Source: Spirochaetota bacterium
GTDB lineage: Bacteria; Spirochaetota; UBA4802; JAFGDQ01
Direction of reading: 5' to 3'
Assembly: GCA_043803405.1 (NCBI GenBank)
Contig: JAZDKB010000019.1
Coordinates: forward strand, 96,001-160,000
DNA: 64,000 nt
The notes under the pieces were generated by a model. That model did no database searches. It was not told the origin of the DNA and worked only from the letters and a program-made list of their open reading frames with translations. This document shows positions 37,827 to 43,623 of this stretch, in pieces (position 1 is the first letter of the stretch; each line of letters opens with the position of its first letter). The translations under genes were made by a program, and so were the position numbers.

Positions 37827-38390
37827 TTAAAGGCCGCGCTTTTGCAAAAATTTAAGGAAGAAGATAATTGCAGCGCAGATAATAAATATAAGAATCCAGT
37901 GGAAAGGCGCGCTTAACCCGGCTATATCGGGTAAGGTTATTTTGCCATAGGATCCCAATTTAAATAATGAATCCTTTAATGAAGAATAGGCTTTTGCATA
38001 AATGCCTGCTCCTGCAAGCATGCCAGGAATAGCCCCGAATAAAGCGTCAAACCGGCCTTCGGAAACAGCACCTATTCCTGTTGTCGGGCAATATCCTGCA
38101 ATGGCGAATCCTATACCGAAAATAAGACCTCCAAGAATATTTGCGCCAACATAAGTTGATTTTGGCTTCAGTGTAAGTATGCCGATATCCCTGAAAAAAT
38201 AAATACCTATCATGCCAACAATTATTGCGGTCAGCATAACTTTAATCATTGTAAAGTCTTTAAGCCTTAATTGGCCTACAATTGTTTCATAGCGGGTCAT
38301 TCTGCTTTTTTGAATCGAAAATCCAAAAATAATACCAATAAGCAAACCTGCTATAAGTTTAAGTTCCGGTGATGAAATAAAAGGAGCCAT
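37827..38390 (-). CDS. YeeE/YedE (DUF395/DUF6691) sulfur/selenium-compound transporter, second half
   Basis: GIIFGF, GGLIFGIGFAIAGYCP motif, multi-TM. Confidence 0.9.
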   Translation of the reverse strand: MAPFISSPELKLIAGLLIGIIFGFSIQKSRMTRYETIVGQLRLKDFTMIKVMLTAIIVGMIGIYFFRDIGILTLKPKSTYVGANILGGLIFGIGFAIAGYCPTTGIGAVSEGRFDALFGAIPGMLAGAGIYAKAYSSLKDSLFKLGSYGKITLPDIAGLSAPFHWILIFIICAAIIFFLKFLQKRGL

Positions 38391-38908
38391 TATTTACCTC
38401 CTTTCCCATACATTATACGGGCTGTAATGATACCCGTTAAAAACATAAAAGGTACAGTAAGCCAGCTGCTTACTGCAAGCTGCAGGATCCCACTGATCCC
38501 GTGTCCCAGTGGTCAACCGTCTGCCATGCGGGCGCCGAACATAAGTATAATTCCGCCAACGAAAGCAAACAGCCAGCGGCGCAGCCTGCCTGTTCCGAAA
38601 CGTTTTTCCCACATTTCAGGGATGAACCTGTTTGCCATGTTACCTGAAAGTTTTGCTGAGATAAATGCTCCGATCAGGCATCCGATCACAAACATCCATT
38701 GCCAGTCAATCATCGGTGTTTCTTTAATGTAGTAAGGCAGGTTTTTAACGTATTCCGGTGCAAAGATTTTTTCAATCATACCGGATGTGCGCACATAGGA
38801 GGTTGACGCGCCGAGCGGCGCTATTGCCAGAAAAGCTATCCAGCTTAAAAGCCCGATTATCACTCCTCCTGCATACGGCGACCAGCTTTCTTTTTTTAAC
38901 CAGTTCAT
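38390..38908 (-). CDS. YeeE/YedE transporter, first half; probable selenoprotein (in-frame TGA at 38513-38515)
   Basis: WSPYAGG..FGARMADG[TGA]PLGHGISGILQLAVSSW..KGGK*. TGA lies at the Cys of the family GAR.A.GC..GHG motif; read-through stop TAA overlaps the next ATG; AGGAG RBS before ATG 38908. Confidence 0.85.
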
Positions 38909-39229
38909 ATATATCTCCTGATTATAAAAAATTTTAAACTCGCGAATAATAATTTTTAATTTTATTATTTCCGTACGACTTTTTGTTGATTTTAAAATGA
39001 TAAAGTTAAAAATGAAGAAAGTCAATTTTATTTCACAAATTCTGTAATTGTTTATTGAATATTAGTATAGTGCGCGAACAGATATCCGGCATCGAATCCG
39101 GAAGAAGGCCGGATTGCTCCGGCACAGATTGTTGCGGGAAAACCATAAGTTAAATATAAACTTTTATTTTTCTTGACGGATTTTATACTGAATTATTAGA
39201 GTATAAAAAAATCAATCAGGAGGCATGTT

Positions 39230-39663: not shown

Positions 39664-41244
39664 TTACTTTGCGCGAAGTTTAAAGCGCTGAATCTTTCCT
39701 GTCGGTGTTTTTGGAAGAGCGTCGATAAACTCAACCCAGCGCGGGTATTTGTACTTGGCCATTTTGTCAAGGCACCATTGCTGGAGTTCTTTTGCAAGAG
39801 CATCCGAGGGTTTTTGACCGGCTTTAAGCACAACCCATGCCTTTGGTTTAATAAGGTCTTTTTCGTCTGCTTTTGCCGTTACTGCTGCTTCAAGCACTGC
39901 CGCGTGCTCCATGAGGCATGCTTCAACTTCAACCGGGGATACCCAGATTCCGCCGACTTTCAGCATGTCGTCGCTGCGGCCTGCGCAGAAATAGTATCCG
40001 TCTTTGTCTTTGTAATATTTGTCGCCTGTGTTGAACCATTCGCCCTGCATTGTGGTGCGTGTTTTTGCGCGTTTTTTCCAGTACAGGATGGCTGCACTAT
40101 CGCATCTTACCATCATTGTGCCCGGTTCGTCCACTGCGGCTTCTTTGCCTTCGTCATTTATGATCTTGAGTTCATAGTTCGGAGTTGCTTTTCCGCTTGC
40201 GCCCGGTCTGATATCATTCGGACGGTTGGAAATGTATATGTGCAGCAGCTCTGTTGAGCCGATACCGTCTAAAATGTCTACGCCGTAACGGGCTTTCCAT
40301 TTGTTATAGAGTTCAGGAGGAAGTGCTTCTCCTGCCGATACGCACATGCGGATCGATTTGCCGTCGTGATCGTCTTTTGGCCCTGCATTTGTCAGCCCTT
40401 TTGCTTTATCTTGCTGATCCTGATACGCCAGCATTGCGCCGTAGAGGGTTGGTACCCCGAAATATACGGTGGGTTTAAATTTTTTAAACAGTTCGTACAT
40501 TCCGTCCGGTTTCGGTGCGCCCGAGTTGAGCACTGTTCCGCCGCCGACTGCGAAAGCAAAATAGCCGGCATTGCCGAGGCCATAAGCAAAGAATAGACGC
40601 GCTGCCGACAGGGTTATATCGGTTTCTTTCAGACCCAGTACGGCTTTGGCGTAATTATCAGCTACTGTCTGCATGTCTTTTTGCGCGTGTATTGCGCCTT
40701 TTGGTGCGCCTGTTGATCCTGAGCTGTATAGCCAGAAGCAGTTGTCATCAGCTGTTGTATATGCGCAATCAAGCTTGTCGGAAGCCATATTGTAAAGATG
40801 ACTGTATGGCAGGCTGAATCCTTTAACTTCGTTGAAAACTATAATGTCGCGAAGATATAAAAGGTCGTCTTTAATTGCTTCTATCTGAGGAAGAAGCGCA
40901 TCGGACACAACAAGAGTCTTTGCGCGGCTGTCATTCAAATAATACTTGTAATCATCCGGCATCAGCATTGTGTTGATCGGGATTGGATTAGCTCCAATCT
41001 TGATGGCGCCGTAGAATACGCCGAAAAACATTGGAACATCCAGTAAAAGAATCATGACGCGGTCATCAATTTCTATCCCCATTTTTAGAAGCATATTACC
41101 GGTCTTATTTACCATTGCCTGGAGTTCTTTATAAGTGTAGTTTTTTTGAGGCGAATAAACTGCCATCTTATCGCTGCGGCCTTCGCGTACGTTCCGGTCA
41201 ATTAACCAGTCGGTCGCGTTATAAAAATCTTCTCCGTATTGCAT
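39664..41244 (-). CDS. Benzoate-CoA ligase family (aromatic acid-CoA ligase)
   Basis: FWLYSSGSTGAPKG, LFFAYGLGN, SAGEALP, DGIGSTE.LHI, GRSDDMLKVGGIWVSPVEVE, GKIQRFKLR. Confidence 0.92.
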   Translation of the reverse strand: MQYGEDFYNATDWLIDRNVREGRSDKMAVYSPQKNYTYKELQAMVNKTGNMLLKMGIEIDDRVMILLLDVPMFFGVFYGAIKIGANPIPINTMLMPDDYKYYLNDSRAKTLVVSDALLPQIEAIKDDLLYLRDIIVFNEVKGFSLPYSHLYNMASDKLDCAYTTADDNCFWLYSSGSTGAPKGAIHAQKDMQTVADNYAKAVLGLKETDITLSAARLFFAYGLGNAGYFAFAVGGGTVLNSGAPKPDGMYELFKKFKPTVYFGVPTLYGAMLAYQDQQDKAKGLTNAGPKDDHDGKSIRMCVSAGEALPPELYNKWKARYGVDILDGIGSTELLHIYISNRPNDIRPGASGKATPNYELKIINDEGKEAAVDEPGTMMVRCDSAAILYWKKRAKTRTTMQGEWFNTGDKYYKDKDGYYFCAGRSDDMLKVGGIWVSPVEVEACLMEHAAVLEAAVTAKADEKDLIKPKAWVVLKAGQKPSDALAKELQQWCLDKMAKYKYPRWVEFIDALPKTPTGKIQRFKLRAK

Positions 41245-41916: not shown

Positions 41917-42132
41917 ATGAGTAATAGAAAAGGTATAGAAGCTTTTGTTTATGTTGTAGCAGCTATTCTATGCGTTATTCGTATCGATTTTTGGTGGTGG
42001 GGGACAAAGATCTATCCAATCTATGCTGGCTGGATCACTGTACCAATGATTTATCAATTCTTCATCTGGCTCGCAGGTACTGCATTAGTTTATATTATAT
42101 GCTTTACTGTATGGCCGGAAGACGAAGCATAA
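41917..42132 (+). CDS. Small two-TM accessory protein of solute:Na+ symporter (DUF3311-like)
   Basis: AAGGAGGTGA RBS; DFWWW..P...GW..P motif; directly upstream of an SSS gene. Confidence 0.8.
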   Translation: MSNRKGIEAFVYVVAAILCVIRIDFWWWGTKIYPIYAGWITVPMIYQFFIWLAGTALVYIICFTVWPEDEA

Positions 42133-42153
42133 AAAAATAGGGGGTAATAATCT

Positions 42154-43623
42154 ATGTCTGGATCAAATATTCAGATTCTTTTAATCCTTGCCGCATACAC
42201 AGTCGGGGTTATGGTGCTCGGTCTTATGAGCTATAAGAAAGAGGCAAATATATCGGACTATCTAATGGCAAACAGGGAATTCAAATTCTTTGTTTTGTTC
42301 GCCGCGGTATTCGGTGCTAACATTTCTGCTGTAACGCTGGTTGGTCTGCCGGGTACTTCGTACCATGTCGGCTGGATCACATGGCCGTATTTTGCCACTA
42401 CATGGGCATGGCTTTCTCCGCTTCTCTTTTATACAATAGGTCTAAGAACCTATAAACTGGGAAAGAAATACGATGTTGTAACAATATCGGAACTTTTCGC
42501 AAAGAGATGGAGAAACAAGAGTATCCAGTGGGTATCCGCGTTCTTTTTGCTTTTTTATATTGTTCCTTATATGATGGTCGGTATTATAGGCGGCGGCAGA
42601 TCGCTTGCCGGTATTACTGGGGGATTTGTTCCTTACTGGCTTGGATGCTTTCTTGTAACTGCAATAGTTTGCGGTTATGTTCTTGTTGGCGGGATGCGCG
42701 GAGCTGCATGGGTAAATACATTCCAAACAATTATATTCCTTTGTGGCGGTCTTGCTATATTCCTTGTAATAGTTTACTCGCTTGGCGGTTTTGAAACAGC
42801 AACAACCGAAATCGTTGAGAAATATCCGGAACTTTTAAATAGAAGCAAAATGCCGTGGCAGAGGTTCTTCAGTTATGGCATTGTTGTCGCACTGGCTGTG
42901 CCCGTATTCCCGAACGTGTTCTCCAGAATACTTACCGGAAAGAAACCTTCGGAATTAAAGAAAGTTGTTATGATTTATCCTATTGCCGGCGTATTCCTGT
43001 TCATTCTTATGGCATATTCGGGCATGTGGGGAAAGATTCCTTTCCCGGAATTAAAGGGACAGGCTTCGGATGCTATTCTCGCTATGCTTCTTAATAAATA
43101 CGCGCCTGCATGGATGGCGGGTGTTCTGGGCGCAGCGATCTTCTCAGCTCTTATGTCTACAGTAGACAGCCAGCTGATCGCCATAGGCCAGATATTCATG
43201 AAGGACGTTGTTCTTCCTTTAAGAAAAGACGGACAGACCAAAAAAAGCGATACAATGATGACACGTCTGGTGGTTCTTGCACTGGCTATTGTTGCATTCT
43301 TAATATCGCTTACCCAGCCTGCCGGTATTATCAAGATCATTGAGTGGGGCTTCGGGGGATTCGCGTGTATGTTCTTCCCTGTAGCTGCGGCTCTTTACTG
43401 GAAACGCTGCAGCCTTACTGCTGCATTCATCTCAGTAGTAGTTTCTGAAGGCCTTTCAATAATAATACCTTTGACAGTGCCTAAGGAAATGCTTTACGGA
43501 ATGCTGCCTGCATTCTGGTCAATAGTTGCCGGTCTTATAGTGCTTCTTGTTCTTGGGTTAATACTCCCTGCACAGAAGAAAGAAGAAACTGATGATTTCT
43601 TTGCAGCTATGACTGTTAAATAA
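42154..43623 (+). CDS. Sodium:solute symporter family transporter
   Basis: DYLMANR, SAVTLVG.PG, GGMRGAAWVNTFQ, AAIFSALMSTVDSQL; about 13 TM. Confidence 0.95.
   Translation: MSGSNIQILLILAAYTVGVMVLGLMSYKKEANISDYLMANREFKFFVLFAAVFGANISAVTLVGLPGTSYHVGWITWPYFATTWAWLSPLLFYTIGLRTYKLGKKYDVVTISELFAKRWRNKSIQWVSAFFLLFYIVPYMMVGIIGGGRSLAGITGGFVPYWLGCFLVTAIVCGYVLVGGMRGAAWVNTFQTIIFLCGGLAIFLVIVYSLGGFETATTEIVEKYPELLNRSKMPWQRFFSYGIVVALAVPVFPNVFSRILTGKKPSELKKVVMIYPIAGVFLFILMAYSGMWGKIPFPELKGQASDAILAMLLNKYAPAWMAGVLGAAIFSALMSTVDSQLIAIGQIFMKDVVLPLRKDGQTKKSDTMMTRLVVLALAIVAFLISLTQPAGIIKIIEWGFGGFACMFFPVAAALYWKRCSLTAAFISVVVSEGLSIIIPLTVPKEMLYGMLPAFWSIVAGLIVLLVLGLILPAQKKEETDDFFAAMTVK

Follow-up and report, generated by a model that had tools for sequence, protein, structure and literature searches.

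In YeeE of S. thermophila (StYeeE), Cys293 points toward the outer vestibule and is in contact with thiosulfate, and Cys91 and Cys293 are essential while Cys22 is not; its authors propose a hydrogen-bond relay in which Cys293 donates an S-H...S bond (PMC7449682). TsuA/YeeE proteins (S. thermophila, PDB 6LEO, 6LEP, 8J4C, and 8K1R; E. coli) are single-chain proteins that contain three Cys and have YeeD/TsuB as their partner. Split forms have also been described. The half-size proteins PmpA and PmpB of Serratia retain exactly two Cys, which occupy the C293 and C91 positions, and a heterodimer of the two proteins has been proposed (PMC11582611). For the split YedE1E2 of Cupriavidus pinatubonensis, import of zero-valent sulfur is described, with both halves and both Cys needed, and full-length YedE did not import zero-valent sulfur in the YedE1E2 assay reported there (PMC10812762). 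YedE proteins have further been linked to selenium uptake (PMC9312934), and PMC11582611 cites the YedE of M. maripaludis as such a case.

The YeeE/YedE family is catalogued as a predicted selenoprotein (PMC9312934, 2022; PMC13188914, 2026), and recoding itself is no surprise to specialists. The entry in PMC13188914 gives the motif GUxSG under the name "thiosulfate transporter family," and the supplement of the 2016 census counts a YeeE/YedE selenoprotein in 5 organisms (PMC5029168). In our literature search, only PMC9312934 and PMC13188914 were found to join YeeE with selenocysteine (Sec), no experimental study was found, and YeeE/YedE was not found in the main texts of PMC2398784, PMC5029168, and PMC12013277.

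We analyzed a 64,000-nucleotide window from contig JAZDKB010000019.1 of a Spirochaetota bacterium. A half-size YeeE/YedE gene of PmpA-like, C-terminal-half type lies on the minus strand at 38390..38908, with an AGGAG ribosome-binding site (38915..38919, minus strand) 6 nt upstream of its ATG at 38908. Under code 11, the translation ends at ...FGARMADG, after 131 codons, before a TGA that is in frame with this ATG (38513..38515, minus strand; tca on the plus strand). A sequence-only reading of the window had proposed that this TGA is read through to a longer product, and we confirmed from the sequence that the frame continues beyond it. With TGA read as Sec, the product has 172 aa, and its C-terminal part (...GUPLGHGISGILQLAVSSWLTVPFMFLTGIITARIMYGKGGK) extends 40 codons beyond the TGA up to a TAA at 38392-38390. 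The extra transmembrane helix suggested for this tail corresponds to a hydrophobic segment at residues 144 to 162 (mean Kyte-Doolittle value, 1.66), and the Pfam match to PF04143 spans the TGA (residues 3 to 160, profile positions 171 to 309 of 310, E value of 3.3e-27).

The gene is followed on the same strand (37827..38390) by a partner half-size YeeE/YedE gene of PmpB-like, N-terminal-half type (187 aa; PF04143 positions 2 to 150 of 310, E value of 4.9e-17; DUF6691). With PF04143 scores of 96.3 bits for the Sec-bearing half and 62.9 bits for the partner, against a gathering cutoff of 27, both gene products belong to the YeeE/YedE family. The GC content of the operon is 42.8%, versus 39.1% for the genome. 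As the sequence-only reading had noticed, the partner gene has its ribosome-binding site, GGAGG (38397..38401, minus strand; 6 nt ahead of its ATG), within the read-through tail, and the two genes share a TAATG stop/start overlap (38388..38392, minus strand), a 1-nt overlap in which the final A of the TAA also begins the partner ATG. This overlap likely couples the translation of both halves. A short overlap or gap at the junction is general in the family, in Sec and Cys forms alike. We rejected a selenium-dependent control acting through the stop/start overlap, since the overlap was similarly frequent in Cys forms (16/23) and TGA forms (39/57) and is thus not Sec specific. At the TGA-bearing loci among L038 to L105, the true stop is again TGA in 40/57 genes and then usually overlaps the partner ATG, so that a single mRNA has UGA in both roles at a distance of about 120 nt.

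Alternation between TGA and Cys codons among homologues, for which the sequence-only reading had proposed to look, was found. Among the tblastn matches listed, 96 rows (the window's own row and one duplicate included) carried TGA (59), TGC (25), or TGT (12) at the Sec132 site and nothing else. In 82 distinct close loci, we counted 58 TGA and 24 Cys codons, with no other residue at the site, and the frame stayed open for 37 to 47 codons beyond it in all loci except one at a contig end. At least 6 changes between Sec and Cys are needed on a 94-row tree from whose construction the site was masked. The same reading would have taken a TGA confined to this strain as a recent nonsense mutation; TGA is also carried by the same-genus relative G002 (83% identity) and by dozens of mostly Thermodesulfobacteriota genomes. 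Desulfatitalea alkaliphila (L075) is a carrier of the TGA form that has been cultured. Among the best 120 database proteins, 42 end exactly before the Sec132 position, and the nearest full-length Cys forms are 63 to 68% identical.

These data bear on the possibility that the TGA is a true stop, resulting from a nonsense mutation or a sequencing error or marking the end of a naturally short 131-aa protein, with the tail untranslated. The 131-aa form is indeed present in databases and, as the sequence-only reading had observed, TGA is an ordinary stop elsewhere, ending 800/3534 frames of ≥150 codons in the genome. We nevertheless consider a true stop very improbable: the same TGA stands in 57 other loci across phyla, ahead of a stop-free conserved tail of matching length, it swaps solely with Cys codons, Sec machinery is present in every TGA genome tested, the hairpin described below is conserved, and termination at this codon would delete an essential residue together with the last helix.

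The genome itself contains selA, selB, and selD above curated cutoffs, along with a tRNA-Sec (anticodon TCA), all within 6.4 to 12.2 kb of contig C26. The four components that the sequence-only reading had suggested searching for are thus present on one contig, and a genome devoid of them, which it had regarded as fatal to its proposal, is not what we found. The selD gene carries its own in-frame TGA, and selD, an FdhA-like gene, and an HdrA-like gene each combine an in-frame TGA with a hairpin at a similar offset. The latter two, named from motifs that we take to be typical of FdhA (HCARTU) and HdrA (DCSMU), lie 6 kb apart at C4:209431 and C4:215690 (plus strand), each with a strong SECIS-like hairpin, and are likely further selenoprotein genes.

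We evaluated the co-occurrence of the TGA form with Sec genes in the 79 genomes behind loci L039 to L117 (56 TGA, 23 Cys), which are metagenome-assembled or draft genomes and include kin that are not independent. selA was present in 53/56 TGA genomes, and the remaining 3 had selB and tRNA-Sec. Among the Cys genomes, 18/23 had selA, one more had selB, and 4/23 had neither above the cutoff. Since 18 of the 23 Cys forms thus occur in selA-bearing genomes, Sec is not required for the function of the family. In a sample of relatives, selA was found in 46/61 genomes.

Special tRNAs insert Cys at SECIS-marked UGA in some bacteria. With this precedent, the TGA might be read through as a residue other than Sec, either as Cys by a recoding tRNA or as Trp or Gly by genome-wide recoding. 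We find this scarcely credible. Long conserved genes (selA, selB, and those of translation GTPases) are free of internal TGA, TGG was never seen in the site column of the 96 tblastn rows, a canonical tRNA-Sec was located with selA, selB, and selD, and 40/57 TGA-bearing genes use TGA again as their true stop 40 codons further on.

The gene has a SECIS-like hairpin at 38483..38501 (minus strand), which spans nt +12 to +30 downstream of the UGA, with a 7-bp stem and the loop AGUGG, 18 nt between UGA and loop, and a folding energy of -9.5 kcal/mol. The bacterial SECIS model described in the legend to Fig. 2 of PMC13188914 comprises a loop of 3 to 9 nt, a stem of 4 to 16 bp, and a G in the first two loop positions, with a spacing of 16 to 37 nt and an energy of at most -7.5 kcal/mol; the window hairpin falls within every one of these limits. 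Our rough script of the generic model separated the two forms poorly, passing 32/57 TGA genes and 9/24 Cys genes. A stem of ≥5 bp with a GU loop, a criterion picked after viewing the folds, was present in 57/57 TGA genes versus 1/24 Cys genes, one TGA locus at a contig end being left out of the count. A looser hairpin test was positive at 17/2154 TAA and 4/580 TAG ends of long frames. When the codons were shuffled synonymously, the energy of the window hairpin was matched in 0/5000 shuffles and its stem length in 34/5000. In the six sequences of the window's clade, all 42 cells of the stem pair, and they include one double-sided change (A-U for G-C), a weak signal that 84/500 shuffles match. 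When folding is left free and starts at the UGA, the mRNA of the window favors a competing hairpin that involves nt +1 to +7, with unremarkable z-scores (-0.74 to -1.8); a ribosome positioned on the UGA would cover these nucleotides.

Among the Cys-form genes, the GU-loop hairpin is retained solely in L056, which comes from a selA-positive genome and is possibly a recent Sec-to-Cys reversion. A second structure in the window, a 10-bp hairpin with a T-rich tail at 38453-38477 (minus strand), lies inside the read-through segment and was flagged as terminator-like. We discarded selenium-dependent attenuation by this hairpin, which is absent from the five closest orthologues and likely due to chance. 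A promoter scan was uninformative, with 8 sites versus 5.5 expected.

The window gene passed all tests for a bacterial selenoprotein that can be made on sequence, and the TGA at 38513-38515 is very likely decoded as selenocysteine. The catalogued GUxSG entry, with WP_012471001.1 as its representative sequence, belongs to the same PF04143 family and has one Sec. Since 52/58 TGA loci read GUPSG, which fits this motif, the Sec site of the window is, as judged from motif and family, very probably the catalogued site in the same half. The window differs from the catalogued entry in that its clade (6 loci) reads GUPLG and departs by one residue from the literal motif, has its own hairpin loop, AGUGG, and includes a host of the spirochaete lineage.

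A distant subfamily has the TGA in the other half, at the C91 site of the partner (GYUPG or GFUPG), and keeps Cys in the first half where this is readable. We found it at L032:807-1415 and L033:861-1448 (both minus strand), from the selA-positive relatives G009 and G015, and at 5 metagenome loci (L124, L139, L164, L171, and L190) of 75 readable among 80 fetched. All seven have a 6- to 7-bp hairpin with GGU at the apex, and Sec at this site does not match the catalogued GUxSG motif. Sec in both members of one pair was not found among the 96 tblastn rows or in a set of 86 loci. Two Cys-form pairs, inspected by eye, immediately follow an NrfD-like membrane gene (L035, in G031) or have a partner with a rhodanese-like C-terminal extension (L036, in G009), contexts that would fit a sulfur-transfer role for their subfamily.

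Together, the adjacent half-size genes of the window cover YeeE's C-terminal half (profile positions 171 to 309) and N-terminal half (positions 2 to 150), with one conserved chalcogen residue per half in loops homologous to those of TsuA/YeeE. Residue 132, the predicted Sec at the TGA, aligns with Cys293 of StYeeE (loop LD, outer vestibule), in keeping with the conserved YeeE Cys to which the sequence-only reading had assigned it. Cys101 of the partner (TGC, 38088..38090, minus strand; motif GYCP) aligns with Cys91, and Thr32 of the partner occupies the position of Cys22, which thus has no equivalent. That reading had also proposed a split two-gene transporter with Sec in one half and Cys in the other, and the alignments to StYeeE agree. 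Judging from these alignments, the pair has the split architecture of the PmpAB/YedE1E2 type. It resembles PmpA/PmpB and YedE1/YedE2, as these are described, in its two adjacent half-size genes, its residues at the C293 and C91 positions, and its lack of C22, but differs in having Sec for Cys in one half and in the size of the halves (172 and 187 aa versus ∼130 aa). Moreover, the hosts of window-type pairs are anaerobic, and no persulfide dioxygenase or regulator gene lies beside the window pair.

Structure prediction gave a poor AlphaFold model for the lone Sec-bearing subunit (mean pLDDT, 58.8; pTM, 0.33). The complex was predicted for a natural Cys-bearing orthologous pair from G036 (50% and 49% identical) in place of the window pair. 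It scored 0.57, versus 0.00 for the best of 3 controls, which gives weak support for a heterodimer and is a pass that may reflect memory as a like structure has been solved; runs agreed in ≥99% of contacts, with a partner pLDDT of ≥75. The mark is reached by 51/78 solved complexes and 2/108 mismatches, and passes at ≤0.60 comprise only 5/78 solved complexes, yet all 4 mismatches that passed.

A real selenoprotein might still serve, with its partner, in the assimilatory uptake of thiosulfate, as TsuA does, through noncovalent passage along the chalcogen residues. The sole relatives in the PDB are StYeeE/TsuA chains, Sec132 aligns with the thiosulfate-contacting C293, and the label of the entry in PMC13188914 names thiosulfate. 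However, the TsuA models NF041049 and NF052577 scored far under their cutoffs (38.7/645 and 53.4/400; 40.5/645 and 62.4/400, score/cutoff), and no yeeD or tusA adjoins the pair, which has no C22; on these grounds, the window pair is not TsuA. A selenolate could also not act as donor in the S-H...S bond that has been proposed for C293, and the loop of the Sec-bearing protein near R215 has no basic residue, in a register set by eye. Such a residue is present in this loop in 14/42 truncated hits versus 29/29 scored Cys hits. We consider thiosulfate uptake of this kind unlikely. We rejected the idea that the loop Lys is lost in step with the gain of Sec: it holds for the window's clade, yet the Lys is kept in many Sec forms.

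Alternatively, the selenoprotein and its partner might import selenium in some form (selenide, selenite, or polyselenide) and replace the selenium-associated YedE. Besides the published link of YedE proteins to selenium uptake, this would agree with the state of the genome's own TIGR04112 yedE, of which only a C-terminal fragment is left beside a tusA/yedF gene and a selD fragment, and with a Cys-form locus (L064) that adjoins a desulfurase-like gene and a Se/S carrier. Selenium-associated YedE proteins (TIGR04112, NF033796) belong to the same superfamily as the window pair but are full length, Cys containing, and linked to yedF/selD, and their models gave only weak matches, below cutoff (TIGR04112, 35.2/200; NF033796 [YedE/FdhT], 41.4 and 38.3/350). 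By these scores, the window pair is not a selenium-associated YedE. The pair is also unlinked to sel genes, G002 has the Sec pair plus an intact TIGR04112 yedE, Cys orthologues occur in 4 genomes in which neither selA nor selB was found, and an importer needing selenium for its own synthesis would presumably fail under selenium scarcity. A selenium substrate thus appears decidedly improbable. The decayed selenium locus (G000:C13:38826-39523; L206, L207, and L012) retains only the last 69 profile positions of TIGR04112 yedE, with an intact tusA/yedF-like gene and the selD fragment on the opposite strand. Unlike this remnant, TIGR04112 yedE is intact in both same-genus relatives.

Among 60 relatives, a close copy of the window gene occurred only in G002, with TGA, and 5/6 family-level relatives had no match. 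In an unrooted tree, the window gene and L038 fall in a clade (support 99/98) with four Syntrophaceae or deltaproteobacterial loci, and the genes flanking the pair differ between the window genome (G000) and G002. Horizontal exchange between the spirochaete lineage and syntrophic Thermodesulfobacteriota is likely. A plasmid search returned only 14 distant records.

A third gene conserved next to the pair was not found, the largest recognized neighbor families occurring in 10/80 loci, and the window pair's own neighbors are aroE and a benzoate-CoA-ligase-like gene, so that the context names no substrate. In a domain scan that covered 87/102 neighbor representatives, sulfur-handling neighbors were found in few of the 80 homologue loci: Pyr_redox-rhodanese (L039, L040, and L042), MBL-rhodanese (L043, L051, and L058), SulP (L051), and TauE (L055). 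The benzoate-CoA-ligase-like AMP-binding enzyme of the window (39664-41244, minus strand) is divergent from a pair encoding a small membrane protein and a sodium:solute symporter (41917-43623, plus strand), an arrangement that suggests that aromatic acids are taken up and activated. The genome encodes three TusA-domain proteins, none of them on the window contig, and dsrA was not found in this 94%-complete genome. One of the three is encoded by an 839-codon frame on contig C13 (L204:982-3207, minus strand), which joins pyridine-nucleotide disulfide reductase-like, rhodanese-like, TusA, and DsrE-like parts, the non-TusA parts being assigned by eye, and is a candidate cytoplasmic persulfide reductase.

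The sequence-only reading had arrived at an integral-membrane selenoprotein transporter, a view that homologues, Sec genes, and the hairpin support, with Sec incorporation and transport as predicted properties. The locus has the TGA in frame, the conserved 40-residue tail, the hairpin, and Sec genes in its genome. We are highly confident that SelB would bind the hairpin at +12 to +30 and Sec132 would be inserted, after which the ribosome would end at TAATG and restart on the partner. Very likely, the two halves would then rebuild the YeeE hourglass, with Sec132 in the outer position of Cys293, Cys101 in the central position of Cys91, and no equivalent of Cys22. The predicted Sec gene and its partner thus probably form a YeeE-type membrane transporter that imports sulfur species.

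A selenolate, with a pKa of about 5.2, is strongly nucleophilic and donates hydrogen bonds poorly, which favors a covalent relay from Sec132 to Cys101 and on to a cytoplasmic carrier. Our best guess, held somewhat short of even confidence, is the import of sulfane sulfur (polysulfide-type sulfur) through such a Sec-to-Cys relay. In a step that we regard as close to evenly balanced, the outer selenolate would attack the S-S bond of the incoming species to give a selenenyl-sulfide, the sulfur would be passed to Cys101, and a cytoplasmic acceptor encoded elsewhere (TusA, a rhodanese, or a persulfide reductase) would release it.

The annotation of this clade can be corrected, as databases end it after 131 residues and thereby omit the essential residue together with the last helix. 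With at least 58 loci here, the Sec form is far commoner than in the 5 organisms of the 2016 census. We tentatively suggest, at somewhat less than even odds, that split YeeE proteins may be membrane-embedded sulfur transferases rather than hydrogen-bond channels. On this view, the presence of Sec at either essential pore position, C293 or C91, would be understandable solely if both pore residues are nucleophiles in a covalent Se-S/S-S relay across the membrane. Because a selenolate cannot donate the C293 hydrogen bond, close Sec/Cys orthologues allow covalent and noncovalent transport to be tested directly against each other. If the transferase reading is true, these natural orthologues, at 63 to 68% identity, would settle the transport chemistry of the family.
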